Positions 5,654 to 58,931 of a DNA stretch of 64,000 nucleotides are shown piece by piece. The stretch lies in the NCBI GenBank assembly GCA_023265685.1, contig JAHFSP010000002.1, positions 5,713-69,712 of the forward strand, given 5' to 3'. The translations under genes were made by a program, and so were the position numbers. The stretch is from Candidatus Woesearchaeota archaeon. Lineage in GTDB: Archaea; Nanobdellota; Nanobdellia; Woesearchaeales; GW2011-AR9. The stretch's first letter is position 1. The number at the start of each line of letters is the position of its first letter. Under the pieces are notes generated by a model. That model saw only the letters and a list, made by a program, of their open reading frames with translations, was not told the origin of the DNA and ran no database searches.

Positions 5654-5769
5654 ATATAAATAGGTTACTGATTTTTATTATCAATAAGAAAAATAGTTAG
5701 TTGATGGTAAAAAATGATCAGAAGATAGGTCATGTGTAAATGGATAATATTTTTTAGAAAGGTTGCATT

Positions 5770-11474: not shown

Positions 11475-11562
11475 AAAGTTCAGCTATTTACCCATACACA
11501 TATAACTAGATCAAAATAGTTGAGAGATGAGAAGAGTGAGAGAGGATAGAAAGAGAGAAACC

Positions 11563-29345: not shown

Positions 29346-29885
29346 ATGAAACAGCCACTTACCCAGAGCCCGATGGTGATAATCGAGGCAGGACACGAGA
29401 AAGAACTTTTTACACAGTTAATGGTGCGCCTTCGGAGTAAAAATACGCTTTCTTTGAATGAATTACTTTCGATTTATCATTCTACAACGCCTGAACCGAC
29501 AATTCCCGTTACAATTTTTAGCGGAAAGTTGAAGCCAGCAGAGGCATTGTGCAAATATCTTAAAGAGGAATTACGTCTTTCCAACAAAGAGATTGCAGAA
29601 ATATTGGGGCGTGAAACAAAAAGCATTTGGGCGACGTATGCACGGGCTGTAGAGAAACGGATTGTCAAAGGATCAAAAATAAATTTGGTAAATTTCAAAG
29701 AAGATTATGTCCTTCCACTTTCATTGTTTGCCAAAAGCAAATGTAGTATTCTTGAGAATGTAGTGTGGTACTTGAATACGATGTACCACCTTCATGTAAA
29801 GGTCATCGCGACTTTGTTAGGTAGTACAGCTAACTCGATTCGAATACTATTATTACGAGTAGAACGAAAACATGGCAAAAACTGA
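29346..29885 (+). CDS. small protein with two tandem HTH (sigma70-r4/LuxR-like) modules
   Basis: 179 aa with an internal duplication: IPVTIFSGKLKPAEALCKYLKEELRLSNKEIAEILGRETKSIWATYARAVEKR versus LPLSLFAKSKCSILENVVWYLNTMYHLHVKVIATLLGSTANSIRILLLRVERK. The 3' end overlaps the giant gene by 14 bp. Confidence 0.5.
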   Translation: MKQPLTQSPMVIIEAGHEKELFTQLMVRLRSKNTLSLNELLSIYHSTTPEPTIPVTIFSGKLKPAEALCKYLKEELRLSNKEIAEILGRETKSIWATYARAVEKRIVKGSKINLVNFKEDYVLPLSLFAKSKCSILENVVWYLNTMYHLHVKVIATLLGSTANSIRILLLRVERKHGKN

Positions 29886-32800: not shown

Positions 32801-34944
32801 AGTATTATGCTTCTTCATGGTTTTTGGGGATGAGTTCGGCAGCAGACGGGTTAACAGTATGGCTTAATGGAGGAGAAAGAGTAACTACAACGGCAAATAT
32901 TCTCGCAACAAATCAATGGTATCAGGTCGCGTTTACCTATAATAAAGATGCCGGCGGTACTGATGAGGTAAAGATTTATGTTAATGGTCAGTTAAATGCG
33001 AGTGGGGACTATTCTACGGCAATCGGAACGGATAATCATGACCTTCTTGTGGGTGCATTTGAATCAACGGGGTATAATTTTAATGGTAATATTGATGGAA
33101 TTAATATTTACAACAGATCATTATCTGCCCAAGAGATACTAGCCCTATATCAAAACCAAACGAATACTATTGTTAGTCAAGAATTAGTTACTGGCGATAT
33201 CTGGCAGGGATGTATCACGCCTAATGATGGAACTGGGGATGGGATTACCAAGTGTTCTAATAATCTGACGATAATTTCAGCAGTAGCACCTGGCAACTCT
33301 GTTCCAACTCATTCTACACCTATTCTTAATTCTACAACCTATCAAAATTTGAGTACGGGAAATATCACATTATATAATGTTTCAACAAGTGATGCAGAAG
33401 GAGATCCGGTTAAGAATATTTATGATTGGAGATTAAATGATACAGGTTATAGTTTATTAAATTGGCCTATGGAAGGAGGAAGTAACTCAACATTTACTAG
33501 AGATTATTCGAGAAATGCACTCAATGGGACTGTAGTAGGAGCCATCTACAACTCTACTGCAGGATCTGATGGAAAAGGTGCGTATCAGTTTGATGGTACT
33601 TACAAATATCTCTCTCTGACGGACACAACCAATAGCCCTTTGGATATAACAAATCAAATAACAGTCATGGCATGGATTAAACCGGCAGCTTCCATGGGCT
33701 CTTATACTCGCATAATTGAAAAGTATTATGCTTCTTCATGGTTTTTGGGGATGAGTTCGGCAGCAGACGGGTTAACAGTATGGCTTAATGGAGGAGAAAG
33801 AGTAACTACAACGGCAAATATTCTCGCAACAAATCAATGGTATCAGGTCGCGTTTACCTATAATAAAGATGCCGGCGGTACTGATGAGGTAAAGATTTAT
33901 GTTAATGGTCAGTTAAATGCGAGTGGGGACTATTCTACGGCAATCGGAACGGATAATCATGACCTTCTTGTGGGTGCATTTGAATCAACGGGGTATAATT
34001 TTAATGGTAATATTGATGGAATTAATATTTACAACAGATCATTATCTGCCCAAGAGATACTAGCCCTATATCAAAACCAAACGAATACTATTGTTAGTCA
34101 AGAATTAGTTACTGGCGATATCTGGCAGGGATGTATCACGCCTAATGATGGAACTGGGGATGGGATTACCAAGTGTTCTAATAATCTGACGATACTTGCT
34201 GCTCCTGTTGGTGGTAATGCTGCTCCCAGCGCACCCCTTCTCGTTGCCCCTAGTAATCTTACCACCACTGTTGTGCGTACACCTCAATTTAATTGGAGTA
34301 CGTCAAATGATACAGATGGAAATCAGCTGACCTATAATCTTATTATTGATGATAGTCTTACGTTCAACAATCCAGAGATAAATATTACAGGTATTGGTAA
34401 TCTCACCTCAGGAAATGTGAGTTATAATATCTCTACTGAACTTGATGTTGATAAAACATATTTCTGGCGGGTACGTGCAGATGATGGAACTGATTTTGGA
34501 CCTTATTCAAATGTGAGTAATTTTACACTGAGTTCGTATCTGGCGATTAGTCTGACCCAGGATACGATCGGTTTTGGAAGTGTTTCTATTTTTACAGCGG
34601 CAAACACTACTTCAGGTACGCCTCGACCATTTAGGGCAGAAAATGTGGGAAATATTGCGGCGAATGTAACGTTGAGTGGTACGCCTTATTTTAGCTCGAT
34701 TTCCTTTCCTTCATCTAACTACCAATTTGCAATCAGAGTGAACGAAACAGGTGCGTTTAATCTGACAATGTCTAATACAAGCTGGATTAACATGGTTAAT
34801 GATAGTCTTTTACCGCATGTTGTTGGACTAGACTGGCATGATTTCAAAAATGATTTCCTTGCGGATATTCTGGTTCGAGTGCCGGTTGGTGAAGTCCCTG
34901 GAACTAAAAATTCAACGGTCACTTTTGCAATTTCACAACAATGA
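29872..34944 (+). CDS. giant (1690 aa) membrane-anchored surface protein: 3x CBM4_9-like modules, 2x LamG (laminin_G_3-like) modules, Fn3-like C-terminal region
   Basis: Uninterrupted ORF with an N-terminal TM (WKIALLLCILFASSYVLMTT). NPSFE..W.YNE modules occur three times. YQFDGT.YLSL...WYQVAFTY...IYVNGQL LamG pattern occurs twice. The Fn3-like segment reads PQFNWSTSNDTDGNQLTYNL..YFWRVRADDG. N-x-S/T sequons are very dense. Confidence 0.8.
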   Translation: MAKTDLSKNGTWEKKRERVEHTLAKIEKVNGISRKNQPRYEVEVGKLDVDIKRVKSRGSKRNLEDTTNRLFTSGTHWKIALLLCILFASSYVLMTTHGPMGHESTGNGITGAAIGKTDYINTDVTGETVPGGAITGAAIGIINPLKIKSNAFTNPSFENAIGSEWMYNETLSTWEGSRLTPTYFTPTHGTYTYLLGSDTSNGCGTVLSSSSSDYNQVKQTVDLTGINSFYFDTKYEDCYGSSSYFNISVLIDDGYPLWSRLSSDYVNNHTLLNTSGYSGVHNITFRLRSGFAGQIAQPAWYIDNISDGSESATLILNHNLTPTNPDSSTPITAHATYNNNATGNVSFYWTINGANIYNFTNQSVAANSYVTNTLMPGNFTQGGAVSLSITAQNSSESYTAPVLSISNVVYAPTTKITNPSFESTLINEWLYNETLSTWEGSRLTPTYFTPTHGTYTYLLGSDTSNGYGVILSAASTDYSQIKQTVDLTGVSAIYFDTKYEDYYGQSSYFNISVLIDDGYPLWSRLSIDYVNNHTLLDTSGYSGVHNITFRLRSGFDGGIAQPAWYFDNLSVIFFPLLASNQNLTPTSAYFNTTLLAQATYSGQSAGNVSFRWSVNGENRFNLTNLSVTTNSYVTSTLMPGNFTTGDTVSLLITGQNSTDTHTAEALTIYISDLPIAIANPSFEIPIGSEWMYNETLSAWVGGRLQPTFFTPTKGTYAYLLGSDTSNGNGVVLGAASTDYSQIKQTVNLTGVSAIYFDTKYEDYYGSSSYFNISVLIDDGYPLWSRLSIDYVNNHTLLNTSGYSGIHNITFRLRSGFAGAIAQPAWYIDNLSVTTISLPTHSTPLLNSTTYQNLSTGNITLYNVSTSDAEGDPVKNIYDWRLNDTGYSLLNWPMEGGSNSTFTRDYSRNALNGTVVGAIYNSTAGSDGKGAYQFDGTYKYLSLTDTTNSPLDITNQITVMAWIKPAASMGSYTRIIEKYYASSWFLGMSSAADGLTVWLNGGERVTTTANILATNQWYQVAFTYNKDAGGTDEVKIYVNGQLNASGDYSTAIGTDNHDLLVGAFESTGYNFNGNIDGINIYNRSLSAQEILALYQNQTNTIVSQELVTGDIWQGCITPNDGTGDGITKCSNNLTIISAVAPGNSVPTHSTPILNSTTYQNLSTGNITLYNVSTSDAEGDPVKNIYDWRLNDTGYSLLNWPMEGGSNSTFTRDYSRNALNGTVVGAIYNSTAGSDGKGAYQFDGTYKYLSLTDTTNSPLDITNQITVMAWIKPAASMGSYTRIIEKYYASSWFLGMSSAADGLTVWLNGGERVTTTANILATNQWYQVAFTYNKDAGGTDEVKIYVNGQLNASGDYSTAIGTDNHDLLVGAFESTGYNFNGNIDGINIYNRSLSAQEILALYQNQTNTIVSQELVTGDIWQGCITPNDGTGDGITKCSNNLTILAAPVGGNAAPSAPLLVAPSNLTTTVVRTPQFNWSTSNDTDGNQLTYNLIIDDSLTFNNPEINITGIGNLTSGNVSYNISTELDVDKTYFWRVRADDGTDFGPYSNVSNFTLSSYLAISLTQDTIGFGSVSIFTAANTTSGTPRPFRAENVGNIAANVTLSGTPYFSSISFPSSNYQFAIRVNETGAFNLTMSNTSWINMVNDSLLPHVVGLDWHDFKNDFLADILVRVPVGEVPGTKNSTVTFAISQQ
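30331..32380 (+). repeat. three diverged in-frame module copies (periods 792 and 783 bp) inside the giant gene
   Basis: Copies start at 30331, 31123 and 31906 (AACCC(T/C)AGTTTTGA...). About 97 nt are identical between copy 1 (about 30369-30465) and copy 2 (about 31161-31257). Confidence 0.8.
32381..34194 (+). repeat. in-frame tandem duplication, unit 921 bp (307 aa); 872 bp perfectly identical
   Basis: 32402-33273 equals 33323-34194 base for base on manual comparison. There are 4 mismatches in the 21 bp before the identical block. Confidence 0.9.
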
Positions 34945-45675: not shown

Positions 45676-45772
45676 CGTCCCGGACGTGATTTGAACACGT
45701 GACCTGACGGTATCTTTTCACAGATACTGTGAGTAACAGCCGTCCGCTCTAACCGGGCTGAGCCACCGGGAC
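45676..45772 (-). tRNA. tRNA-Asn(GUU) with canonical 22-nt intron after position 37
   Basis: Hand fold: GTCCCGG/CCGGGAC acceptor plus discriminator G; D-arm GCTC-AGCCCGGTTA-GAGC; anticodon stem GACGG/CCGTC with loop CTGTTA-[CTCACAGTATCTGTGAAAAGAT]-A; T-arm ACGTG-TTCAAAT-CACGT. Oligo-T follows and there is no encoded CCA. Confidence 0.85.
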
Positions 45773-46650: not shown

Positions 46651-47457
46651 TTATTTTTGGCAGGTGGAGCAATACCAGGTACCACGTCCTGCGATTTTTT
46701 TTGATTTTAATTCATGGCCTTTGGGGCAAGCCTCTTTTTGATAGACAGCGAGATATTGTGCAAAATCGCCTTTGCCATCAAGATGTTTGAAGTTGGAAAC
46801 GGTTGTGCCGTTTTTTTTGATTGCTTGTGTGAGGAGGTGGAGGAGTTCATGGTGGAGTTGGTGGAGTTTTTGTTTGGAGATGGTTTGAATCTTTTTTGTG
46901 GGGAGGATTTTGGCGTGGTAGAGGGCTTCTTGAGCATAAATGTTGCCAATGCCCGCAATACAGGCTTGGTCGAGTAATTTAGATTTGATGTTGGCTTTTG
47001 GATAGGATTTGATTTTGGTGGTGAAATCGTTTGGTGTGATGTCAAAGGGATCTGGACCAATTCTCTTGAGGAGATCTTGATATTGTTCTTTTGTTAAAGG
47101 TTCAATACGACCAAAGCGGCGAATTTCGTTGAATGTGAGTGCTGTTTTGTCGTTGAATGTGAAGAGGGCTGAGCGGTATTCATGCGAGGGGTGATTTTGT
47201 TGGTTGATTTCTTGTGGTGTGTTAAGGTAGTGAAAATGGCCAGTCATACGTAGATGGACCATGATCGTGCTTTTGTTGGTGTTGAGGAAAATGTATTTTC
47301 CTCGACGAGTGATTTGAGTTATTTTGAATGGGATGAGGGAGAGGAGTTTTTTGGAGACAACTTTTGCGTCAGTGATAGTGATGTGGGTGATGGTTTTATT
47401 GAGGATCTTGGGTCGCAGTTTTCGTACAACGGTTTCAACTTCGGGGAGTTCTGGCAT
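46651..47457 (-). CDS. mutM: formamidopyrimidine-DNA glycosylase (Fpg/Nei family)
   Basis: MPELPEVETV N-terminus (catalytic Pro2/Glu3), an H2TH region and a C-terminal zinc finger (C..(x)..YCSTCQ). It starts 8 bp after the stop of the upstream 917-aa gene. Confidence 0.85.
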   Translation of the reverse strand: MPELPEVETVVRKLRPKILNKTITHITITDAKVVSKKLLSLIPFKITQITRRGKYIFLNTNKSTIMVHLRMTGHFHYLNTPQEINQQNHPSHEYRSALFTFNDKTALTFNEIRRFGRIEPLTKEQYQDLLKRIGPDPFDITPNDFTTKIKSYPKANIKSKLLDQACIAGIGNIYAQEALYHAKILPTKKIQTISKQKLHQLHHELLHLLTQAIKKNGTTVSNFKHLDGKGDFAQYLAVYQKEACPKGHELKSKKIAGRGTWYCSTCQK

Positions 47458-47465
47458 GTGGAGAC

Positions 47466-50219
47466 TCAGGGAGATTTTGGTTGATATTTTTGATATGCTT
47501 CGAAAATACGTTCGACGTAGGGGTTCACATAATTTCCTTCAGCTACGGATTGTCCATTTTGTCCTTTGAACAGGTTTCTGTTCATCATTTGTTTAACATT
47601 CTCCCACGTTACAGGTTGTCCAGCTTGTTTTACTAAGTTGACATTGGCGAAAATTTTGCCTGATCCTCGGTTATGAGAAGCAATCGTTAATTTGACACGG
47701 TCATTGGGGGTTGCTGCATCAGGAAATCTCGCAAAGCTTTGTTTGGTAAGTCTGGCCATAGCATGAATATTTCTTTCAGAATCAAAACGGTCATCATATA
47801 GTGGATCTCCTTTTATAGGGCTGCATTGATACACGCCAGGTACCCAGATGTCTTTTCCTGCCTGAGCTCTTTCATTTTTGCAATGGTATTTCCCTTCGTT
47901 GGCGTCTACAACCGTACAGCATTGATGTACATTTGGAAAAATGTCTTTAAATGAATTATCGTTCGCCGTACTGAATATGAATTGTCCTAATCCTGCTGCT
48001 CCTGCCGTACTAATTTTCCACGGATTAAACGCAGATTCTTGTGAGCCTATTGCTTTCACTAACGCAGGGGAGACTTGTTCTTCTTGCGCATACTGATTGA
48101 ACCATCGATCATACTTCTCGTTTTCGATTATTGGATACAAGCTATACGAAGAGCCACTATCTTCTTGCGTTGCGCCTGGTGCTGCGGGCGGAGGATATAA
48201 TAGATCCCATGAGACAAATCCTGTTGTTGGATCGTACACGTATTCACCACCTTTAATGTAGGGAGAGACTTTTCTCCAGGCTTGATCGATTTGTGTGAGA
48301 CGAACAGAATATGACTTAGAGATGGACTCTGGCGGACCTGAAGGATCGGCTCTTCCACTTTCCGACATGTATCCTAATTCTGGGGAGCTGTAGTCTGGAG
48401 ATATTGACTCTGGTGAAAGAGGAAATTGAGGATTTTGGTTACCTGCCAATTTTTGTAATTCATAGTATACTTTCTTAGCCCATGACTTTCCCCCATCGTT
48501 ATCGAAATGAACAGCAGAGGGTGGAATAAGATGTTCGCGATCTTCTTGTGTTAACGCTTCGGCATCTATCAATGAACATTGAGTATTGATTATTTGTTTG
48601 AGTGCTGAATTTATTTCGTCTGGGTGTACTTTAGCACTACCGGTGACGGGGGCGCCAACCCAAATACATTTTGCATTATTAGTTGTAATTTTATTGATTA
48701 AAGAGAGAATATTGGCTCTTTGACCATTGACACCTTCCGTATTTAGGAAATTGGTCCCTAATGAAATGATAACGAGTTGCGGCCTTAATGAGGAGAGTTG
48801 CGTTTCAAAGTTGAAATCTCTCATGATTAGATTACTTGGAGATTGCTTATTTATTAGAACGAGAGAACCTGCAGGATTTGGTCCGGTAGATTTGCCATTA
48901 TTATCCCTTAACTCGTTACACACTTTATAGTTAACCTTATCAAAATTACTTGCTGCTGCTCCCCCACAGGCATAGGTTTGAACTTGAGAATTTTCTGAGA
49001 TTAATCGGTGTAATTCTTTACCATATGCTCCCACCGAATGAGAATCTCCGATGAGGAGGATGGGAGAAAGAAAAGTTTGAGTTGCATCACCACATTCAAA
49101 ATCAGCTGCGTCAATGTTGCCGTCTCCGTCGTCATCAACACTGTTGTTGCAGATTTCGTTTTCTAAACAGATTTGACCTTCGGGACCAAGTTGATATTCA
49201 CATTCTAAGTCTGCACAGTCGATGAGTCCGTCGTTGTTGTCATCTTCTTGGTTATTGCATATCTCTTTCTGATTACAATATGTTTTTTCATTACATTGAA
49301 AATCATCGCAATCAACGTGACCATCTTCATTATTGTCGAGACCATCATAGCAGGTTTCAGGGATATCTTGGGAGTTAATGCTAACAGGGATAGGGCATAT
49401 TGTGACTTCAGGTCCGCGTTGTCCTGCGCAGGATTCATCTTCACAATCAACTGTTCCATCACCGTTGTTATCTATACCATCTGCACAAGGAAATGTCAAA
49501 CCAGATTGATCAATAGCACTAAATTCAGGAAGATTATTTTTTGGTTGGGGAATTGCGGCAGGTTGGCCATCAACTTCTGATTCCACAGGTTCCGCCGCAA
49601 TAGGTACTACAGCTGGAGAGCTAGCCAGAGTACATATCTTTTCCCAGCCAGTGTTATCGAAAAAAAGTTTATTATCTTTTAATTCAGGTGTGTCGGTAAG
49701 GGTAATACCTGAGAATGTTCTTCCTTTAGAATCGCCAGTAGGTAAAATACAATTAAGCTTCAGGTGAGGATCAGTATATGACGACTCCCCATTATCAACG
49801 CGAGATATAACTCTTTCAGTCGTTATAACTCCATCTTTTATGAAGAACTTGTACGTGTGGTAATTGTAATCTTCTTGGCCAATCTTACATGTCACCCGGA
49901 GATCATAGATTTTGTAAATAGATCCCTCTTCATTTAGTTTATTACGCACGAAAGATATTCCTATTACCTCACCTGATGGGCATATAAAATTTACGTTACT
50001 ATAATCTTTTTTGCCAATTGATGAGCTGGTAGAAAAAATACCGTTAGTACTTGAGCACATAAAATTTAAACCATTAACATAATTTCCTGATTCTAATGAA
50101 ACCCGTACACCTACCAGGGGCTCTCCTTCTTCACAAGATACCCTTATTTGATCATCAGCAATAACTATTGACATTAAAAACAGAATTACAATGAGTACAA
50201 TAAGGTTGGTTTTTCTCAT
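47466..50219 (-). CDS. secreted multidomain protein: N-terminal beta-rich domain, 4x Cys/Asp (CxDGxDNxxDGxxDCxDxxC) repeats, SGNH esterase, SLT lytic transglycosylase
   Basis: 917 aa with signal peptide MRKTNLIVLIVILFLMSIVIADD. Repeats span residues about 245-376 (nt 49092-49487). SGNH blocks: LLIGDSHSVG, ACGG, SLGTN, DREH (nt 48450-49064). SLT motif GSQESAFNPWKISTAGAAGLGQF (nt 47640-48122; Glu codon at 48036-48038). Confidence 0.75.
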   Translation of the reverse strand: MRKTNLIVLIVILFLMSIVIADDQIRVSCEEGEPLVGVRVSLESGNYVNGLNFMCSSTNGIFSTSSSIGKKDYSNVNFICPSGEVIGISFVRNKLNEEGSIYKIYDLRVTCKIGQEDYNYHTYKFFIKDGVITTERVISRVDNGESSYTDPHLKLNCILPTGDSKGRTFSGITLTDTPELKDNKLFFDNTGWEKICTLASSPAVVPIAAEPVESEVDGQPAAIPQPKNNLPEFSAIDQSGLTFPCADGIDNNGDGTVDCEDESCAGQRGPEVTICPIPVSINSQDIPETCYDGLDNNEDGHVDCDDFQCNEKTYCNQKEICNNQEDDNNDGLIDCADLECEYQLGPEGQICLENEICNNSVDDDGDGNIDAADFECGDATQTFLSPILLIGDSHSVGAYGKELHRLISENSQVQTYACGGAAASNFDKVNYKVCNELRDNNGKSTGPNPAGSLVLINKQSPSNLIMRDFNFETQLSSLRPQLVIISLGTNFLNTEGVNGQRANILSLINKITTNNAKCIWVGAPVTGSAKVHPDEINSALKQIINTQCSLIDAEALTQEDREHLIPPSAVHFDNDGGKSWAKKVYYELQKLAGNQNPQFPLSPESISPDYSSPELGYMSESGRADPSGPPESISKSYSVRLTQIDQAWRKVSPYIKGGEYVYDPTTGFVSWDLLYPPPAAPGATQEDSGSSYSLYPIIENEKYDRWFNQYAQEEQVSPALVKAIGSQESAFNPWKISTAGAAGLGQFIFSTANDNSFKDIFPNVHQCCTVVDANEGKYHCKNERAQAGKDIWVPGVYQCSPIKGDPLYDDRFDSERNIHAMARLTKQSFARFPDAATPNDRVKLTIASHNRGSGKIFANVNLVKQAGQPVTWENVKQMMNRNLFKGQNGQSVAEGNYVNPYVERIFEAYQKYQPKSP

Positions 50220-50770
50220 CCGACATCAAACCTCTTGATGATAGTGACTTTTTTGTTGAGGAGTGGGTTTTCAACAATGATCTCGATTTGATATTGACCG
50301 ATTTGAGGATTGTTGCCGAGGGTGAAGTAATCAGCAAAGGCAACAGCTTGAGATTCTTTAGGGGATTCTTGGTGAAATGTGTAGGAGTTCTGCTGTTCTA
50401 AGTCGAGGATGATGTTACCTTCGGGATTGATGACACGATAATTACGTGCGATCATGATCTCGCCTTGGTAGACGCTGCTTTCTACTAAGAAGCGTAGATA
50501 GATGTTGTCGTCGCGTTGGAATAATTCTGTTTTGTTGTAGCAGTTAAATTTAGTGTCGACGTAATTACAAAGATCTACTTGTCGTATTTGAAGATCGCCG
50601 GTTCTCTCTAATGGAATAAATTCTGCATTGAGTACGTTGACTTGTTGTTCTTGCGCTTGGGGTGAAAGGACATCAAAATGGATGAGGAGGAGCATGATCG
50701 CTGTGGTGAGTGCGGCGACTCCTACGATGACGATTACTTGTAGCCAGACGGAACCTTTGGAATTGATCAT
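50216..50770 (-). CDS. small single-pass membrane protein
   Basis: 184 aa from MINSKGSVWLQVIVIVGVAALTTAIMLLLI. The ATG overlaps the upstream stop (ATGA 50767-50770) and its own stop overlaps the next ATG (ATGA 50216-50219). Confidence 0.5.
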   Translation of the reverse strand: MINSKGSVWLQVIVIVGVAALTTAIMLLLIHFDVLSPQAQEQQVNVLNAEFIPLERTGDLQIRQVDLCNYVDTKFNCYNKTELFQRDDNIYLRFLVESSVYQGEIMIARNYRVINPEGNIILDLEQQNSYTFHQESPKESQAVAFADYFTLGNNPQIGQYQIEIIVENPLLNKKVTIIKRFDVG

Positions 50771-53700
50771 GGGGAAGGGGTTGGAGTTGAAGCACATTTA
50801 GTGATAAGTTCATTACCAGATGGAATTATAAATGATGGATTCTGAATAACATTTGTTGCGATAGTACAACTTGAAGCAGTAGTAGTTGTAAGACATTTGT
50901 ATGCCCAGGTAGTATCTCCACTTATTCTTTTATCGAAACCTTGACTTGTACAATCACCTGAAGGGGGCGATGCTGGAGAAGGAGCTGTTGGGGAGGTAGA
51001 TGTATTACAAAGAACGAAAAGAGCATGATTAGCGGGGATAACGAAAACAGGGTTAGTTCTTCCTGTTTTAGTATTACACGCAGCGGCTTTATTGTCTACT
51101 TTACATTGATATATGTAATCATCATTAAGAATGCTTTTGTCATAGATTGTACTATCACATTTTCCTGCTAGTTCCCTCTTGGCACTTGCAAGAGTTCCAG
51201 CATTACAGTATAACCCTTTACCATCTGTAGTATCGCCATTAATCTTTTTATCGACTTCGCACAGATAGATAGATATTTTTTTGTAGTCAGTGGTGTCGGT
51301 GACGTCTGGGCCATACGCGGGAGCAGGTTGACCGGCGTAGTTACGTTGGCCTGCTTCTCCAAAGAAATATTTGAGCAGATTATTTAATTCTGTTTTATAG
51401 GCAGCGACATCATTCTTCTCGGTTTTGCCTTTCATGACAAAGGCAAGAGTGTCGTAATAGAGGGCGAGAGCGTTGGTCATATCATTGCCAAGCTCTTTGA
51501 AGACGCCTATGGCAATTTGATGAACGCGATTATAATTATCTTGCATGAAGACGTCATGAAGGCCGCCTACTTCAGCTACAGCAGTTGCGGTTTTTTGAAT
51601 ACGGACTTGTTGAACGTGACGATTTTTTCCGATCGCAGGGGGTTTGGCGATTTGAGTCGGAGTTGTACAGCCTCCCCCTTCATCATGTTCGTATAATTCA
51701 TAGACTACTTGGATTTCTTTACTATTAGCCTCATTCGCATACACACTTTTTTTGGCGACACGATAGGTACATTGTAATGGTTGTGTTCCTAATTCAGGAC
51801 GACCGATAGCATTAGATAGAGTGAATCCGTCGACGTTGAATGAGGCTTGGTTGGCTTGATCTACGGTTAATTCTTTGACATTGCTAAGAGCAAGGGATCC
51901 TGCGGAAACACTATAGCCTGCTTGAGTTGATTGAGGGGTGAGTGTTGCATCAGCAGGTACAGAGACAGTTACTTTGCCTGCACCGTTAGTGACAGGAGTG
52001 TAGCCAAAGAGGAATTCTGTTCCATCATGGACATCATCTGGAGTACCACTATAGGTGGGAGAGTTCGGACAGCCGTTATTACTTTGAGTTGTGCCTTTTC
52101 CTACGGTTTGAAGCAGATTTGAAACACCGCCAAACATCTCACTTCGTACGATTGCAATACTGTCTTCTTTTTTGAATGTGCCTTGGACATTATCAGGAAT
52201 AGGAAAGATTGCATCTTGGGAAACACCAGGAAGATTACGAATCGTGCGTTTAAGACACATGCCTTTGCCATTGAGAGCGAGATTGAGACGAACGCGAACA
52301 TCATCACCGAGGATAAATAGGTTAGGTGTTTGACAATTAACCCAGCGATCAGTTCTGGCGTCGTGACATTCCATGTAGGGTGATTCGATGGCTGCTTGAC
52401 CTGCACCAAATAAGTTGGAGAGTTCAGGACAATTATATCGCCCCGATACAGCATCAACACTACATGTGCCGACGAGTTCGGGAGTTGTGTCAGTGATAGG
52501 GAAATACCATACGCCTTTGCGACCTTGGGCTACTTCTTTATCAAAACATAACTCAGGGTTTTCGGCTGGATCTATTTCTACTTCAACTTTAACGTGATCG
52601 TAGCGGAAATGAGAATCGATACGTTGTGGCGTATCAATGGGTACACTAAACATACGACCGCTGGCGATACTCATGTCTGAGTGGATTATTTTCTCACGTT
52701 CGCCTGCGAATTCAGATTTGGGGTCAGCAAGTAAGCAATCACAGCCTTTGCCGTTACAAGATAAATCAACGCCATAAAATCCACGATCCTCTGGACCTAT
52801 ACATTTAAGCGAGGTTACGGCTCGGGTAATTTTACAGCCCGGCATAATGACTGCACCTATTTCGTAATTGTGAATGGCGGTTTGTCGAGCAGGATTAAAC
52901 GTACTTAACTCACGAAATGCTGGGGCAACAACAACTGAAGTGTGTGTTGGAAAAGCGTAGGCAGCATCAAGTAAAAAGTCTTTGGAGAAGAGCGGAAAAT
53001 CAAACCCAAATGCAGCCATACACATGGATTGCGCAAAACCTTGTGCACCACCCTGGAAATAGTTGTTAAGTTCGGCGTTACCATAATCTGCTTTGATATC
53101 ACTGACGCTTGATTGTAATGCATCCGTCATGCCCCGGGTCCCTTCTTTTACAATAACTCCAACATCCTCGAAGGCGCCACCTTTTCCAACGTCATCAAAG
53201 TTGGAAGGGGTACAACTATTCGAGAGCATTGACGCAATACCCTTGTAAACAAGGCCACAGACATTTTGCGTAAACCAGGTTTTACAGGCACCAGCGTCAT
53301 AGAGACCAGTATATTTAGCTTCGACTAAACAATTACGTAGACCGACGAGAATACTTTCAAGCATGACCATGTGTTTAAGAATGCCTGAGGTACACATTGT
53401 TTGAACAGACTCGATAAACCCGGCATGAGGATCAACTTTGGCAACTTTCTTTTCACCAGGCAGGTAATCTGTAACATAATCTTGACCGAAGGCTCCTGAG
53501 AGATCACGTCCACTGTAATAGCGAATCTCGGGGTAATAGGTTCCTACACGACCTTTGTTCTCTTTGTAGATACGTTCTTCACGATAGGACCATTTTTCTT
53601 CTACACCTTGTTTGAATTTGTTGGCTTCAACAGCTGTACGTAGGCTGCGATCGTCGTTGGAGTGGGTTTGTTTTGTGGGAGGAGTTCCCGTACAGACACA

Positions 53701-56700
53701 TTGATAAAATTCTGGTTCTCGGGTATCAGTATAACTTTGAATGAAACAATCTTTAGTATATCCGGCTGCATAACGGGGAGTCTCGTCCGTAGAACCTAAG
53801 ATTTTATCACTCTGATCGTAGAGTTGAGGAATTCCTTTATCATCGTTTTTTTCTTTGTAACAACCTTTACTAAAGTATCCTTTCTGTTTATCAAATTTGT
53901 ATTGGTCTGTAAATGCACCTTTGTAGGGGTCACTACATACTTCTTGACAGGTTACGTCTCTTCCAGCAATTAAGCCTTCTGAATCAGGGGGTTGATACAC
54001 TATTAGTGTGTCTTCTTGTGCTACAAGTCCACCCAATAGTTTGTTGGCAGGTCGTAAGTGAAAGATACCTCTTTTTGAATCGGCATTGAAATCAGGATTT
54101 GGATCCTTGTAATAGATGACATCACTTCCATCACCTTTCGTCCAACAGTTGCCTACATCTTTTGCATCAACAACAAGATGAGTAGCATCAGCTTTCAAAT
54201 GATCTTGACAGTTTTCTAATGGCTTGAGTGGCACACCTCGTCCGGTCACAGCACAAGAACTTTCAGCTTGAATGATTTTGGTAATGGCTTCTTCAGTCTT
54301 ATCTTCGGTCCAGCCGGCAGGAACAGCACGACAAAAAGCGCGATCACAGGTCCAGCGGTAGGCTTGATCTAGTGCAGCTTCGAATTTCCAGGCAGTTGCA
54401 GTGGAGTCGCATAGTTCATCGAGAGTGATGTCTTTTGTTTTGTCACCTTCAAGACCACCCGCATTAAATGCGTCAACAACTTTGCCTGGAAGCCAGGCCC
54501 CATATTGTGCAGGATCGGCCGTATACATTTCGTACCAATTTTCTAACGTGGAACGTAGATAGAGATTGTTTTGATTGATGGGACATTTGCCTGTTTCATC
54601 GAATGAGCCACCTTTTTGTTTTGCTTGATTCTGGGGTTTGGCAAATTCAAAATACGATTCAAGACGTGATGTTGCGACACGAATACCACGACTGACCCAG
54701 CGTCCTAAAAATGAGGCAATACAACTTACCCCGGTAATAATATAGGCAGTTTCAACATAGCCGCGTGCGGTTTGGAGCATGTCAATGGTTTTGTTGAGGG
54801 CAGCGACACCGTCGTTGGCAATGAAATCAGGAATGAGATCTTTACTTTCGAGGGGAATGTCAACAAAATAGCCAATATCTTGACACGAGGTTTGAGTTTT
54901 GGTTTGGCTCCATTGTTCTTCATTGGTATCAGGATTTTTGTTGCCACTTTTTTCTTGATATTCAATAGTTACTTTGAGAGGAAACACGATTTGACGTTTT
55001 TTAAAGTCATTCCAGAATTTGTCTTCTTTTTTACTGAATTTTGAGGCACCAATTAATGTCCACGTTGCGTAGACGGCATCGGGGCCTAAAATCGGACGAG
55101 TGGATCCCGGAAGAAGTTGACAACCGATGCCAAAGCGAGTGTCATCTTTCATGGCTTGAGTACAGGCAGGTTCAATACGTACATTGGTAATTTTGTAATT
55201 GCGATCATATTGGTTTCCAGATGCGTCAAGCGTTGGTGTACCTTGCCCGAGATAATTAAATTTGAAAACGGTTTGAATTTCCTGACGGCCGTCGTCAAGT
55301 AGAGTAGGGTTAAGACGATATGGCTGTTGAAACTTCGCCATGTTCTCAAGACCAAATGCAAGATCACCTGAGGAACAGGAATTAACATTGACGGTGCGTT
55401 GCCAACCAACACTTTTGCCGCTACTGTCTTCAGCGATGATGTAGACAAAATAGGTTACTTGTTGTTGCGCGGCAAGTTGTTCTTGAATTGGAAAAATGGA
55501 GACTTGGGCAAGTTCAGAAGGCACTTGACGCGGGGTTAATTTTTTCGTAGTGAGTTGAGAACGTAGTGATAATGAGAAGTCTACATCTTTAAAGCGAAAT
55601 GATCCATTCTGATCTGCGGTGACAACAGTCACAGCACGACTAAAGTCCGGTGTGTATTGTTGGCCTTCGGGACGGTAAATGTACAAATAGACTTTGGCAC
55701 CGCTTTCTGTTTCTCCGGAGATGGATGATTCGGCTCTGGTTTCATAATATTGATAGCCTTTTTCAATTTCAGCACGTAGGGTGGGTACTTGGATATCGGC
55801 TTTGAGGTTGAGGATTTTTTCTGTGACCCACCCAGCACGATCGGTTGCACGTATGATTAAAGCGTTTTGACCTTCTTGAAGATCAACTGACAGGGAGAAT
55901 GGTTGTGCGGCGTCAAGGTTTTCTTGTTGTTCTACAGAGCGATTATTGACGAAGACTTCGATGCTCGAATTTTCACTTAGAGACCCATTAAGAATGAGTT
56001 GTTTGTCCCCGATTAATTCTGGAACTGGAAGGAGAGTAATTTGCGGTTTGTGAGAATCAGCATAGACGATACTTGTCGTGTTGGCAGTATTGCCGAAAGA
56101 ATCAGTTGCTTGGACGAAAATGAGGTTGTCTTTTTCTTCATCGAGATGAACATTGGTTACGACGAATGTACCATCGGCAGTTTGAGGAGTTGGTCCTTTG
56201 GCTTGAGCGTTGGCGCCAAGATGCCCATTGACGAGGACTTTGATGGCAGCACCATTTTCAGCTGTGCCATTAAATGATAAGGAAGTGCCTTGGATAATTG
56301 CAGGAATGGTAAGAGTTACTGATGAGGTTGCGATGTCGGGGGCAAGAGTTTGAAATGAATAGAATGAACCTTGGGCGTCATCGATAATAGGACCGCTTTG
56401 AACTTTGAATTGATACGTGGTTTGGGGATCGAGATTAGGAAGAATGAGTTGATGTGTGGTGACGGCGTCAGCGTCTCCTTTTCGGATGAATTGAGGTTGG
56501 TTTGTGGGAGGGGTGGGATTTTGAGGTGAATTTGCAAGAGGGTTCGTCGTGTCGGTTTGTGAAGATGCCGCTGGAGCATATTCAATAAAGCTATCAGCAG
56601 GAGTATCAGTTTGCCAAGTTACCGTTGCACTGTTTTGAGTCACGTCTTGAGTGGTAACACCTGATATTTCAAGAGCAGTAACAACTGAAGTATTAATGAG

Positions 56701-56844
56701 AATTGCAAGCATACACACAGCGATAATTTTCCAGAGTAGGCCGTGTTGGGAGTTATGTTGAGAGTTAGATTGTGAGGGATCAGGCCGAGTAGTGTTATGT
56801 TGTGTGCGTTTATTTTGTGCTTTATTGGGAGTTGTTGGAATCAT
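50767..56844 (-). CDS. giant (2025 aa) Cys-rich membrane/surface protein, orphan
   Basis: Uninterrupted 6-kb ORF. N-terminal TM/signal (LLWKIIAVCMLAILINTSVVTA), an Fn3-like domain (ATVTWQTDTPADSFIEYA...TTYQFKVQS) and Ig-like repeats. More than 1500 aa of Cys-rich sequence follow without a motif I recognise. One internal hydrophobic segment (AYIITGVSCIASFLGRWVS). Two C-terminal 4-Cys modules. Confidence 0.75.
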   Translation of the reverse strand: MIPTTPNKAQNKRTQHNTTRPDPSQSNSQHNSQHGLLWKIIAVCMLAILINTSVVTALEISGVTTQDVTQNSATVTWQTDTPADSFIEYAPAASSQTDTTNPLANSPQNPTPPTNQPQFIRKGDADAVTTHQLILPNLDPQTTYQFKVQSGPIIDDAQGSFYSFQTLAPDIATSSVTLTIPAIIQGTSLSFNGTAENGAAIKVLVNGHLGANAQAKGPTPQTADGTFVVTNVHLDEEKDNLIFVQATDSFGNTANTTSIVYADSHKPQITLLPVPELIGDKQLILNGSLSENSSIEVFVNNRSVEQQENLDAAQPFSLSVDLQEGQNALIIRATDRAGWVTEKILNLKADIQVPTLRAEIEKGYQYYETRAESSISGETESGAKVYLYIYRPEGQQYTPDFSRAVTVVTADQNGSFRFKDVDFSLSLRSQLTTKKLTPRQVPSELAQVSIFPIQEQLAAQQQVTYFVYIIAEDSSGKSVGWQRTVNVNSCSSGDLAFGLENMAKFQQPYRLNPTLLDDGRQEIQTVFKFNYLGQGTPTLDASGNQYDRNYKITNVRIEPACTQAMKDDTRFGIGCQLLPGSTRPILGPDAVYATWTLIGASKFSKKEDKFWNDFKKRQIVFPLKVTIEYQEKSGNKNPDTNEEQWSQTKTQTSCQDIGYFVDIPLESKDLIPDFIANDGVAALNKTIDMLQTARGYVETAYIITGVSCIASFLGRWVSRGIRVATSRLESYFEFAKPQNQAKQKGGSFDETGKCPINQNNLYLRSTLENWYEMYTADPAQYGAWLPGKVVDAFNAGGLEGDKTKDITLDELCDSTATAWKFEAALDQAYRWTCDRAFCRAVPAGWTEDKTEEAITKIIQAESSCAVTGRGVPLKPLENCQDHLKADATHLVVDAKDVGNCWTKGDGSDVIYYKDPNPDFNADSKRGIFHLRPANKLLGGLVAQEDTLIVYQPPDSEGLIAGRDVTCQEVCSDPYKGAFTDQYKFDKQKGYFSKGCYKEKNDDKGIPQLYDQSDKILGSTDETPRYAAGYTKDCFIQSYTDTREPEFYQCVCTGTPPTKQTHSNDDRSLRTAVEANKFKQGVEEKWSYREERIYKENKGRVGTYYPEIRYYSGRDLSGAFGQDYVTDYLPGEKKVAKVDPHAGFIESVQTMCTSGILKHMVMLESILVGLRNCLVEAKYTGLYDAGACKTWFTQNVCGLVYKGIASMLSNSCTPSNFDDVGKGGAFEDVGVIVKEGTRGMTDALQSSVSDIKADYGNAELNNYFQGGAQGFAQSMCMAAFGFDFPLFSKDFLLDAAYAFPTHTSVVVAPAFRELSTFNPARQTAIHNYEIGAVIMPGCKITRAVTSLKCIGPEDRGFYGVDLSCNGKGCDCLLADPKSEFAGEREKIIHSDMSIASGRMFSVPIDTPQRIDSHFRYDHVKVEVEIDPAENPELCFDKEVAQGRKGVWYFPITDTTPELVGTCSVDAVSGRYNCPELSNLFGAGQAAIESPYMECHDARTDRWVNCQTPNLFILGDDVRVRLNLALNGKGMCLKRTIRNLPGVSQDAIFPIPDNVQGTFKKEDSIAIVRSEMFGGVSNLLQTVGKGTTQSNNGCPNSPTYSGTPDDVHDGTEFLFGYTPVTNGAGKVTVSVPADATLTPQSTQAGYSVSAGSLALSNVKELTVDQANQASFNVDGFTLSNAIGRPELGTQPLQCTYRVAKKSVYANEANSKEIQVVYELYEHDEGGGCTTPTQIAKPPAIGKNRHVQQVRIQKTATAVAEVGGLHDVFMQDNYNRVHQIAIGVFKELGNDMTNALALYYDTLAFVMKGKTEKNDVAAYKTELNNLLKYFFGEAGQRNYAGQPAPAYGPDVTDTTDYKKISIYLCEVDKKINGDTTDGKGLYCNAGTLASAKRELAGKCDSTIYDKSILNDDYIYQCKVDNKAAACNTKTGRTNPVFVIPANHALFVLCNTSTSPTAPSPASPPSGDCTSQGFDKRISGDTTWAYKCLTTTTASSCTIATNVIQNPSFIIPSGNELITKCASTPTPSP

Positions 56845-58931
56845 GAGATCAACTCCGGAGCTGGAATGGCGAGACTATCTTGATCAAGCTTGGTCATCAG
56901 ATTAATAACTCCTGTATTGGAAGTGTCAGTAGGAACTAATGTGTGAATCACAATTTTGTGTGTGTTTTCGAGCTGATTCCAGACAACTGTCCAGTTGCCT
57001 TTGTAGCCGCCGATGACTTCTCCTCCCCCCTCATCACTGATACCGCCTTTGAGCAAGAGAACTTCTAGTGGATAGGTAAAGTCAGCTTGAGCGAGAAATT
57101 GGAGTTCTTGTTTTTGGCTGATTTCAGGGTCAAGGCTTGATGAGATGATTGTTTTTACGTCATGGAAATGGGATGAGAATGGATCGCGAGAGGTCATGTT
57201 ACCATCATAATAAAATGAGATAAATGCAGTAACATCGTCAGAGAGTTTTTGAGCAGGCCCAATTTGGGAAGAGGAGGTGAATTGGTGTGTTACTATTTCA
57301 ACATTGGATAGGGGGAATGCCTCAAGAGGGATTAATTCTAATTCTACCTCACCGTCGGGGTTGCTGACGACGCGTTTCCAGTCTTCTTTGTAGCCGTCTT
57401 TACTTGCGCGAACAATGGCACCTCCACAGAGTGGAACGTTGGTACGAGTTGCTGCAACATCACCCATGCCGGCAAAATCATATTGGGTTTGCGCGATTGC
57501 ATCACATTGATATTGTAAACAATTGTAGGAAATATCTGCACCCTCTAGAGGAGTACGGGAATAGACACCTTCATTGTTATTGACTAATTGATAGGTTTTG
57601 AATGTAAATGGAACTGTTCCTGCTTGACAGAATTGATCATTATCGTAGGTGCCAAATACAACCGCTGTTCCTTGATGAGGCGTGTCTTTGCGATTGGGGA
57701 TGTTATGGTGTAGATGAACCGTAAATGAACTTTTGAAGTCGTATCCAGTTGTTTCATCATGAACTCGTACCACGACGGGAAAGCTTACATCGTAGGTAAA
57801 TTTCCACGACTGCATACAGAAGAAAGAGAGTAGAGAATTGTGCTGTCCAAAAGAATTACTGCGTAACGCATTACCACTACGTGGGCTCACATCAAACGTA
57901 AATGGATAATTGTCATCAAATGTGAAGACAACGGAGAGTTCATCGCCATACGATACATCATCGCCAAGGTTCCAGAAATAATGATTTTGATAATAAGGGA
58001 GATCTGCAGGGTATTGGTTGATGTTGGTGCCTTTCACTTTCAGTTGTGCAAGATTAACGCGCAAAAGGTCTTTGAGGGTTTGTTTGACTTTGTCAAGCGG
58101 CCAGCGTTTGGGAGCACAACTGACTTCAAATCCGGCAACAGGTAAATCTTTATGCTCTAATGCGATGAGATCTTGGGTAAGATCTTCTAGTTTGAGGTCA
58201 CGTAGTTCAACATCGAGAATTCGACGAGAGAGGTCGTAGGCATGTTTGAGTTTGATGTCTGATTCAGCAACATGATTTGCAACTTCGGTTACAATCTCGC
58301 CGTTTTTGTCTTTAACGAGAAGATCCCAATGGACATTGAAAATGATTTTACTTTCGACGATTTCAGTGTTGCCAGTAATGGGACTGCGTTCTTCGACATC
58401 GTAGGAATCTAGTTTTCCTAATTCAAAGACGCAATTATGTAATTTTTGTTCAAGTTCATGATCCAGTTGGGTTTTGATGTCTTCAAGGCTGGGGTAAAGA
58501 GTGTTTTCACCATACGCCCAATAGGGAAGATCTGAAACGGGAGAGGTTTGTAAGTATAGATTAGCGTTATCTGCAATCTGGGAAGGAATGGTGAGATAAC
58601 CTCCTTGTTGACCAAGGGTGCGTACAGCATTTTCTCCGACGTTAGTAATACAAGAAGTGATAAGTTGTTCGATACGATTTTTTTCGGTGGGGATGATTTC
58701 TCCAGGTTTGAATGTGACCACTTGGGTTTTGATAGCGATAATAAGAATGATGGAGAGTAACGCAACAATTCCTAAGATGATGAAAATGGTGACTTGACCA
58801 CGGCGAGTGGGTATTGTGGTGAGAGAGGGTATTGTGGGAGGTATTGGAGAATGCGAGTTGGGATTAGAGTGAGCTGATAATTGAACAGAGGACGGACTAC
58901 TACGGACACGATCAAACCTCTTTTGTAACAT
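56841..58931 (-). CDS. 696-aa protein with archaeal class III (type IV pilin-like) signal motif
   Basis: TRRG-QVTIFIILGIVALLSIILIIAI (residues 42-67) fits [KR]-G-[Q]-hydrophobic. No motif was recognised in the rest. Its stop overlaps the ATG of the giant gene (ATGA 56841-56844). Confidence 0.65.
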   Translation of the reverse strand: MLQKRFDRVRSSPSSVQLSAHSNPNSHSPIPPTIPSLTTIPTRRGQVTIFIILGIVALLSIILIIAIKTQVVTFKPGEIIPTEKNRIEQLITSCITNVGENAVRTLGQQGGYLTIPSQIADNANLYLQTSPVSDLPYWAYGENTLYPSLEDIKTQLDHELEQKLHNCVFELGKLDSYDVEERSPITGNTEIVESKIIFNVHWDLLVKDKNGEIVTEVANHVAESDIKLKHAYDLSRRILDVELRDLKLEDLTQDLIALEHKDLPVAGFEVSCAPKRWPLDKVKQTLKDLLRVNLAQLKVKGTNINQYPADLPYYQNHYFWNLGDDVSYGDELSVVFTFDDNYPFTFDVSPRSGNALRSNSFGQHNSLLSFFCMQSWKFTYDVSFPVVVRVHDETTGYDFKSSFTVHLHHNIPNRKDTPHQGTAVVFGTYDNDQFCQAGTVPFTFKTYQLVNNNEGVYSRTPLEGADISYNCLQYQCDAIAQTQYDFAGMGDVAATRTNVPLCGGAIVRASKDGYKEDWKRVVSNPDGEVELELIPLEAFPLSNVEIVTHQFTSSSQIGPAQKLSDDVTAFISFYYDGNMTSRDPFSSHFHDVKTIISSSLDPEISQKQELQFLAQADFTYPLEVLLLKGGISDEGGGEVIGGYKGNWTVVWNQLENTHKIVIHTLVPTDTSNTGVINLMTKLDQDSLAIPAPELIS

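Follow-up and report, generated by a model that had tools for sequence, protein, structure and literature searches.

A predicted SGNH esterase-lytic transglycosylase fusion in the variable slot of a woesearchaeal surface-protein cassette

Introduction

O-acetylation of peptidoglycan blocks lytic transglycosylases, and the SGNH enzyme Ape1 lifts this block; in Neisseria meningitidis, Ape1 forms a complex with the SLT-family lytic transglycosylase LtgA in which the two proteins stimulate each other. A second group of SGNH proteins, DUF459, is the family of the peptidoglycan O-acetyltransferase PatB. Here we describe a gene that fuses an SGNH domain to an SLT domain in a Candidatus Woesearchaeota archaeon. 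It lies on the reverse strand of a 64,000-nucleotide stretch of DNA (positions 5,713 to 69,712 of contig JAHFSP010000002.1, assembly GCA_023265685.1; hereafter the window, in whose coordinates all positions are given), where it occupies the fourth place of a conserved cassette of surface-protein genes. We consider it probable, if well short of certain, that its product is a secreted or surface-bound bifunctional peptidoglycan-degrading enzyme, esterase and lytic transglycosylase in one, directed against bacterial walls. That murein is the substrate is likelier than this statement as a whole, and the chances that the esterase specifically performs de-O-acetylation are about even.

Wall-degrading enzymes are not new to these archaea. 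SLT genes have been reported from Woesearchaeota and Pacearchaeota since 2013-2015, the targeting of bacterial walls by their SLT or glycoside hydrolase family 23 (GH23) proteins has already been published, and Nanoarchaeota have been noted as rich in peptidoglycan hydrolase genes. An earlier reading of the window, made from the letters alone (the sequence-only reading), had called such an enzyme unexpected in an organism without murein, a point that had thus already been published.

Results and discussion

Two predicted catalytic domains in one chain

The gene is an open reading frame (ORF; 47466..50219, reverse strand) that starts with ATG and encodes 917 amino acids (aa). Its product is laid out as follows.

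50157..50219, reverse strand: N-terminal hydrophobic leader, aa 1-21 (Kyte-Doolittle scan: a single hydrophobic segment, aa 1-19)
49605..50156, reverse strand: N-terminal Cys-containing domain, aa 22-205, weakly shared with the closest homologue (P0002) and with no other protein
49083..49490, reverse strand: four acidic double-disulfide repeats, aa 244-379 (NCBIfam NF033662)
48441..49064, reverse strand: SGNH hydrolase domain, aa 386-593 (26 homologues, AlphaFold, Foldseek, PDB profile)
48168..48320, reverse strand: conserved module of ~45 aa, aa 634-684 (...IDQAWRKVSPYIKGGEYVYDPTTGFVSWDLLYPPP), defined by a hidden Markov model (HMM) from five SGNH-SLT proteins
47469..48131, reverse strand: SLT/family-1 lytic transglycosylase (GH23) domain, aa 697-917 (Pfam SLT and NCBIfam MltF)

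The SLT domain matches Pfam SLT (PF01464) with E=1.9e-11 and 44 bits against a cutoff of 21.3, with only the first half of the profile aligned. The second half, aa 809-880, is matched separately by the NCBIfam MltF model. The domain is therefore split: an insertion of ~50 aa with four conserved Cys (aa 757-808) interrupts the fold between the motifs GLGQF (743-747) and DDRFD (809-813). The remaining motifs are Glu728-Ser729 and ASHNRGSG (847-854), the equivalent of AYNxG. When compared with the PDB, a profile of five homologues retrieved MltC first (4.8e-12), followed by EmtA, MltF, T7 gp16 and Slt70. E728-S729 is invariant in the five homologues and aligned with ESSFNP of MltC, and the MltC entry 4cfo carries Gln at the position aligned with E728, which marks the catalytic residue. 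G743 and Q746 of GLGQF are invariant as well, ASHNRGSG aligned with AYNGGAG of MltC, and E728-S729 also aligned into residues 453-505 of Slt70, the stretch that we take to contain E478. By every sequence test applied, the domain belongs to the SLT/family-1 lytic transglycosylases; the SLT domain with a catalytic Glu that the sequence-only reading had claimed is thus upheld by an above-threshold Pfam match and by the alignment of E728 with the catalytic Glu of MltC.

The SGNH domain announced by the same reading is also genuine. Ser393 (GDSHS), Gly420 (ACGG), Asn490 (GTN) and His571 (SAVHF) are invariant among the five fusion proteins, and GDSH, Asn490 and His571 are so in an alignment of 26 sequences. 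What did not hold is the choice of DREH as block V, which was rejected on the 5- and 26-homologue alignments: the invariant His is H571 in SAVHF, and H563 is not conserved. Of the DREH residues, D560 is the same in all five fusion proteins. Homologues carry GDG[IV]H[YF] as block V where the window protein has SAVHF, the canonical Asp being replaced by Ser568.

A profile of the five SGNH sequences retrieves stand-alone, full-length relatives to E=1e-33, which carry DUF459 and Lipase_GDSL_2. An AlphaFold model of the domain built with the 26-sequence alignment reached a predicted local distance difference test (pLDDT) of 85.7 and a predicted template-modelling score (pTM) of 0.86, and the top Foldseek matches were SGNH enzymes only (TesA, EstA and NgPatB, all at E 1e-5 to 1e-4, and a DUF4886 protein), with probability 1.00 and template-modelling scores of 0.56-0.66 to TesA, EstA and PatB, in keeping with the flavodoxin-like alpha/beta/alpha fold of SGNH enzymes. 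Among PDB entries, the five-sequence profile placed NgPatB first and NmApe1 second, and the 26-sequence profile retrieved NmApe1 (2.9e-7; 4k3u/4k40, of which 4K40 was confirmed as Ape1), generic esterases, CjPatB/DUF459 (2.5e-4) and NgPatB; only blocks I and III aligned in the Ape1 match. By these profile comparisons, the nearest characterised relatives of the domain are NmApe1 and PatB, both acting on the 6-O-acetyl group of N-acetylmuramic acid (MurNAc), and the domain itself is, by sequence, a divergent subfamily. Pfam detected no inserted carbohydrate-binding module (CBM) in it, such as CBM35 in CjApe1, and the one insertion that it has, aa ~426-475, is short and lies in a low-confidence part of the model.

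The closest stand-alone SGNH relatives (loci L014-L053) are concentrated in Bdellovibrionota (Bdellovibrio, Bacteriovoracaceae, Halobacteriovoraceae), Sericytochromatia and Riflebacteria/Ozemobacter, the first of these being a phylum known for bacterial predators. The neighbourhoods of the bacterial stand-alone relatives contained no MBOAT gene and no murein genes. The distribution of these relatives is a hint of wall modification during predation and of a pool from which the domain may have come.

The stretch between the two catalytic domains had been described as a Pro-rich linker. It is not a plain linker: it holds the conserved ~45-aa module, IDQAWRKVSPYIKGGEYVYDPTTGFVSW..., which follows the pattern IDxAW...V[WYF]xPxxG[FW]. 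The HMM built from the five fusion proteins also finds an M74 peptidase protein (E=2.4e-11) and an M23-like protein (E=9e-8) from related cassettes, with no further match among 9451 ORF fragments from the window and 53 loci. The module has no Pfam family; it is present in ~65 representatives of the SGNH-SLT family and in 24 of 48 proteins encoded at the fourth position of sibling cassettes, and is a candidate for docking to the cassette surface proteins, for targeting or for wall binding.

Upstream of the SGNH domain, the four repeats match the NCBIfam model 'acidic double-disulfide repeat' (NF033662) in four stretches at 76.6 bits, above its cutoff of 41 (E=8.6e-22), and contain the acidic D/N-x-D-G core by which this family is recognised; the region holds 38 Asp/Glu against 3 Lys/Arg in 136 aa. 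All four repeats of the sequence-only reading are present, but repeats 1-3 carry four Cys each rather than three (245/259/264/275, 290/304/309/315 and 321/335/340/351), and repeat 4 is degenerate, with two Cys only. Weak matches to a Cys-rich segment of teneurin-4 (7plp) and to the EF-hand loops of SCaMC-1 were found, and repeats of the NF033662 type occur in many secreted bacterial proteases and adhesins; by sequence, those of the window protein are probably a Ca2+-binding extracellular stalk or binding module. The preceding domain, aa 22-205, is possibly a beta-prism or lectin-like binding domain, its sole Pfam hint being a non-significant match to VOMI (E=0.069). Both the acidic repeats and this N-terminal domain are confined to the window protein and its closest homologue. 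The leader consists of MRK and a 17-residue hydrophobic core ending in ...VIA/DD, a candidate Sec-type signal peptide or signal anchor, and the 28 Cys of the protein fit an extracellular location; the protein would accordingly be either secreted or surface-anchored.

Every peptide string that the sequence-only reading had quoted occurs in the ORF exactly and once: the leader at aa 1-23, the repeats at aa 245-264, 290-309, 321-340 and 357-376, GDSHS at 391-395, ACGG at 417-420, GTN at 488-490, DREH at 560-563 and QESAF...GLGQF at 727-747. Its codon positions for E728 (nt 48036-48038) and S393 (nt 49041-49043) are likewise exact.

An exhaustive HMMER search returned 73 cluster representatives at E<=1e-30, many of them spanning SGNH, linker and SLT. 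A family of only five members, as a word-index search had given, was therefore rejected as an artefact of sensitivity. Given the E-values of the SLT and repeat matches and the retention of SGNH-linker-SLT in other genomes, the domain layout is not due to chance. Family members with a name are all labelled Woesearchaeota or 'archaeon', and the longer ones add a CE4 polysaccharide deacetylase, Amidase_2, Hydrolase_2 or 3D domains, and in some cases nuclease or phosphatase domains.

A conserved archaeal cassette with a variable fourth gene

The archaeal source named by the sequence-only reading is confirmed by an intron-bearing tRNA gene, by an L1-L10 gene pair whose L10 has a P0-type (RL10P) insert, by PAC2 and TrmB regulators, and by >20 kb of synteny with a Ca. 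Woesearchaeota metagenome-assembled genome (MAG); the organism is a woesearchaeal (DPANN) archaeon. The same MAG holds the best homologue of the fusion protein (P0002, 40% identity), in a locus ordered as in the window: PAC2, genes of 680, 1916 and 185 aa, the SLT protein, Fpg, NUDIX ... GrpE-DnaK-DnaJ. The three genes that precede the fusion gene in the window are the following.

56841..58931, reverse strand: cassette gene 1, 696 aa, N-terminal transmembrane segment; the best-conserved cassette member
50767..56844, reverse strand: cassette gene 2, giant surface protein of 2025 aa with 49 Cys, an N-terminal transmembrane segment and fn3/Ig-like domains
50216..50797, reverse strand: cassette gene 3, 193 aa, one N-terminal transmembrane segment; sibling cassettes keep both its position and its sequence

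A TATA-like TTTATAAA box lies ~30 nt upstream of the start of the 696-aa gene. ATGA overlaps join the 696/2025 and 193/917 junctions, the 2025-aa and 193-aa genes overlap by 31 nt, and each of the four proteins has one N-terminal hydrophobic segment. Apart from fn3/Ig in the giant, nothing informative was found for the 193-, 696- and 2025-aa proteins in Pfam, PHROGs, PADLOC or PDB profiles, and the 193-aa protein matched none of Pfam, PHROG, PADLOC and PDB at all.

Relatives of the 696-aa protein occur in at least 321 GTDB species genomes. Among the matches listed for it, 80 of 80 records bear archaeal titles (Woesearchaeota, Nanoarchaeota, Nanoarchaeia, unclassified 'archaeon' and automatically labelled 'Methanosarcinales' MAGs). 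Many cassette-bearing MAGs (L012, L063, L068, L070 and others) are titled 'uncultured Methanosarcinales archaeon' in TPA (third-party annotation) assemblies, probably a systematic taxonomic mislabel. In the 80 loci fetched (L054-L133), most have an orthologue of the 2025-aa protein at the same position, and the order 690 aa, giant, 190 aa was kept in all 54 with a readable 190-aa gene. The same three genes precede the SGNH-SLT gene in all of its sibling loci.

The gene that follows the 190-aa gene (slot 4) was readable in 48 loci and, with Pfam at E<=1e-4, held these domains.

FGE-sulfatase-like: 13 loci
SLT: 11 loci
DUF2272: 8 loci
GDSL/SGNH (Lipase_GDSL_2): 7 loci
Peptidase_M15_4: 4 loci
Enolase: 4 loci, in which the slot has no enzyme and the next housekeeping gene follows
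Peptidase_M23: 3 loci
Amidase_2: 3 loci
Phage_lysozyme2: 3 loci
Exo_endo_phos (nuclease/phosphatase): 3 loci
Polysacc_deac_1 (CE4): 2 loci
Hydrolase_2: 2 loci
Metallophos: 2 loci
Glucosaminidase: 1 locus

The surface cassette is thus lineage-wide and has a hypervariable slot for murein hydrolases, and the SGNH-SLT fusion of the window is one of the variants that fill it. Two lineages add a second murein hydrolase to the cassette, either a Peptidase_M74 of the MepA type (E=1.8e-19) or the M23-like protein. The association with Amidase_2, M23, M74, M15, CE4, Hydrolase_2 and 3D domains, in longer family members and in cassettes, strongly supports peptidoglycan as the predicted substrate.

Both additional hydrolases (L004:12209-14290 and L008:7800-9980) end in a lipase-like alpha/beta-hydrolase domain with a GHSAGGA nucleophile elbow, a combination that suggests joint attack on wall and lipid. 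The C-terminal ~80 aa of the giant (50767-51015, reverse strand), a small Cys-containing repeat, resemble the N-termini of two short SLT proteins (P0175, 9e-6; P0180, 8e-4), and one slot-4 protein (L101) also matches the giant; this segment may be a shared binding domain. A Rosetta-stone BLAST of the window giant against family representatives of >2300 aa and against an SLT-bearing giant (L131) was negative.

Part of the evidence on the SLT domain points towards viruses. It matches PHROG endolysin, lytic tail and internal virion protein families, and the nearest SLT-only relatives outside the SGNH-SLT family sit in phage-like gene arrays, as might be expected if the gene were a remnant of a virus or mobile element, for example an endolysin or virion-associated lysin. 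However, the gene is flanked by housekeeping genes (PAC2 ... Fpg, NUDIX, GrpE-DnaK-DnaJ) whose order is preserved across several divergent genomes, the other cassette proteins have no PHROG match, the cassette is spread over the species genomes counted above, and a murein hydrolase would be useless to an archaeal virus. A prophage origin was rejected on the grounds of housekeeping synteny and lineage-wide distribution, and a viral remnant of any kind is scarcely credible.

The enzymes that accompany the fusion also bear on whose polymer is attacked. Woesearchaeota have been proposed as partners of methanogens, and the target might be archaeal, either the pseudomurein of methanogens or the archaeon's own envelope during the assembly of surface structures; in bacteria, SLT domains help to assemble machines that span the envelope, and the SLT domain of the window protein matches an NCBIfam flagellar lytic transglycosylase. 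Pseudomurein, however, is built with beta-1,3-linked N-acetyltalosaminuronic acid and lacks the C6-OH of MurNAc that the SLT reaction requires for the 1,6-anhydro bond, and the accompanying MepA-type M74 peptidase, M15 D-Ala-D-Ala carboxypeptidase and Amidase_2 MurNAc-L-Ala amidase are specific to bacterial murein. A 2025 survey likewise found that archaeal peptidoglycan hydrolases occur mostly in classes that do not make pseudomurein. Pseudomurein was rejected as the target on chemical grounds, and we regard an archaeal polymer in general as highly unlikely.

Proposed mechanism and role

We propose that the SLT domain, through Glu728, would cleave the beta-1,4 bond between MurNAc and N-acetylglucosamine (GlcNAc) of bacterial murein and leave 1,6-anhydroMurNAc, a reaction that requires a free C6-OH on MurNAc. 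The SGNH domain, with Ser393 as nucleophile, Gly420 and Asn490 forming the oxyanion hole and His571 as base, would most likely strip the 6-O-acetyl groups that block this position, so that O-acetylated glycan strands may be processed first by SGNH and then by SLT, in a covalent counterpart of Ape1-LtgA. The acidic repeats and the N-terminal domain would be accessory, probably Ca2+-stabilised spacer or binding modules, and the enzyme would probably serve to open or break down the walls of bacteria to which the archaeon is attached, or which are its prey or are scavenged by it.

Several results weigh against this proposal. PatB, a close relative of the SGNH domain, is a transferase and not an esterase, and the similarity is too weak to separate an Ape1-like esterase from a PatB-like transferase by sequence or fold. 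Ape1 is absent from the top 50 Foldseek matches, in which TesA and EstA rank level with PatB, and the isolated domain stays below the gathering thresholds of the Pfam SGNH families (Lipase_GDSL_2, 25.7 versus 32.9; DUF459, 25.4 versus 27.2). The block-V Asp is kept in just two of the five fusion proteins, and a protein without it would need a Ser-His dyad for catalysis, or a different acid, D560 for instance; the loop with the His is the least confident part of the C-terminal half of the SGNH model (pLDDT ~65-78), and the model of the whole SGNH-linker-SLT region, from a 3-sequence alignment, is poor (pLDDT 48). The case for substrate specificity is built from weak profile similarity and from association with wall-active domains, and slot 4 also holds domains with no evident role on murein, namely the FGE-sulfatase-like (13 loci), DUF2272 (8 loci) and nuclease/phosphatase domains. 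The missing Asp does not exclude activity, since SGNH enzymes that operate with a Ser-His dyad exist (the CE2 family).

These points give room to a division of labour in which only the SLT domain degrades murein and the SGNH domain is a lipase or lysophospholipase acting on membranes or lipoproteins, an esterase for acetylated teichoic acid, capsule or exopolysaccharide, or a PatB-like transferase. Such a division would suit the thioesterase/lipase-type enzymes among the best Foldseek matches, the transferase activity of the PatB/DUF459 relatives and the loss of the triad Asp. Attack on lipids would fit the arsenal of the M74 and M23 cassette proteins with their separate lipase-like domain, and phage tail esterases with surface polysaccharides as their substrate are among the BFVD matches of the SGNH domain. 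On the other side, the best profile match of the SGNH domain among solved structures is Ape1, followed by PatB proteins, and its fusions to murein-specific catalytic domains recur. A transferase role would call for an acetyl donor system of the PatA/MBOAT kind, and no MBOAT (PatA-like) gene turned up in the cassette, in the window ORFs that were scanned or next to the stand-alone SGNH relatives; O-acetylating the substrate would, moreover, inhibit the fused lytic transglycosylase. From these last two points we infer that an esterase is favoured over a PatB-like transferase, and we consider a separate target or transferase role for the SGNH domain conceivable but rather doubtful.

The wall-directed bifunctional enzyme that we prefer might serve nutrition rather than attack. 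In a scavenging scenario, it would digest the peptidoglycan debris of dead bacteria and so feed amino sugars and amino acids to a reduced archaeon. The biochemistry would be identical and the leader is compatible with a soluble, secreted form; biosynthesis is reduced in DPANN archaea, and Pacearchaeota have been proposed to make use of peptidoglycan from dead cells. However, the ATGA coupling of the gene to a conserved cassette for membrane-anchored and giant surface proteins suggests an apparatus attached to the cell and not a freely diffusing enzyme, the fast turnover of slot-4 enzymes looks more like an arms race, and no genes for the uptake or catabolism of muropeptides were seen in the cassette. 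We consider pure scavenging unlikely.

More speculatively, the three conserved genes and slot 4 could together form a woesearchaeal apparatus that docks onto bacteria and breaches their walls, with the IDxAW module loading interchangeable enzymes such as SGNH-SLT, M74-lipase, M23-lipase, amidase and CE4, and slot-4 diversity tracking the wall chemistry of the partner; this is a tentative idea that we would not yet back. Were it true, the SGNH-SLT variant would match O-acetylated murein of a bacterial partner. Cycling of slot 4 through nearly every class of murein hydrolase is the pattern expected of an inter-domain arms race, and the shared ~45-aa module may explain how wall-degrading enzymes are recruited. 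Taken with the enzymes it holds, the cassette suggests that Woesearchaea attack or feed on bacteria. If the proposed mechanism is correct, the fusion would be selectively effective on O-acetylated murein, which would point to the kind of bacteria targeted, and a natural single-chain Ape1-LtgA pairing could serve as an enzybiotic against lysozyme-resistant bacteria with O-acetylated walls. The locus makes interactions between DPANN archaea and bacteria experimentally approachable.

Neighbouring genes

An Fpg/Nei DNA glycosylase gene (46651-47457, reverse strand) starts 8 nt past the stop codon of the fusion gene on the same strand and follows the cassette in all sibling loci; it may be co-transcribed with the cassette. 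The intron-bearing tRNA gene (97 nt; 45676-45772, reverse strand) was found by Rfam and missed by ARAGORN, and carries a 23-nt insertion of the archaeal intron type directly 3' of the anticodon. Bacterial-type genes also occur in this archaeal genome. The queuosine genes Tgt and then QueA lie at 10341-12558 (forward strand), in agreement with the queuosine synthesis reported for some DPANN archaea (PMC8204110), and the S-adenosylmethionine synthetase at 20768-21934 (reverse strand) is of the bacterial/eukaryotic MetK type (S-AdoMet_synt N/M/C), not the archaeal type, and was likely acquired horizontally. A second giant protein of 1690 aa (29872-34944, forward strand) contains Laminin_G_3/ConA-like lectin and Ig-like domains and is a candidate for another adhesin.

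Comparison with known systems

No description of the SGNH-SLT fusion, of the shared module or of the variable-slot cassette was found in the literature, of which the available part is incomplete. Closest by lineage are the large extracellular SLT-domain proteins known from Woesearchaeota and Pacearchaeota (fam00969, Castelle et al. 2021; GH23, Vigneron et al. 2022), which share the SLT domain and the proposed binding or degradation of walls; the accessible parts of these reports record the presence of SLT/GH23 and contain no mention of an SGNH partner, the ~45-aa module or a cassette with a variable slot. Other archaeal proteins that are secreted and aimed at bacterial murein are Woldo, Danwoldo (Halogranum salarium) and the GH25 lysozyme of Aciduliprofundum. 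These belong to other catalytic families (zoocin-like M23, glucosaminidase or GH25) and bear classical peptidoglycan-binding domains, with neither an esterase partner nor a cassette.

The modular lysins of phages and bacteria (endolysins, T7 gp16 and polymorphic wall-degrading toxins) resemble the slot-4 repertoire in that SLT, amidase, M23, CE4 and SGNH domains are shuffled on a common scaffold, and the SLT domain of the window protein itself resembles phage virion lysins. Unlike these, the gene is chromosomal, lineage-wide and syntenic, and is coupled to giant surface proteins rather than to a virion, a holin or a secretion-system effector locus. The likeness to PatB/DUF459 is closer: DUF459 is the best or second-best Pfam match, below cutoff, in all five fusion proteins, the sequence and fold searches place NgPatB and CjPatB near the top, and the block-V motif GDGIHF aligns. 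In contrast to PatB, the window protein has no PatA MBOAT partner among the ORFs scanned and is a predicted extracellular archaeal protein, fused to an enzyme that O-acetylation would inhibit.

The system that the fusion most recalls in its pairing is Ape1-LtgA of N. meningitidis, in which an Ape1-related SGNH enzyme and a family-1 SLT enzyme likewise occur together and de-O-acetylation precedes cleavage by the lytic transglycosylase. It departs from that pair in being a single chain, SGNH followed by SLT with an additional conserved module between them, and in lacking both an Ape1-type CBM detectable by Pfam and the Asp of the triad. Above all, its producer is an archaeon without murein, so that the wall to be opened would be a foreign one and not its own.

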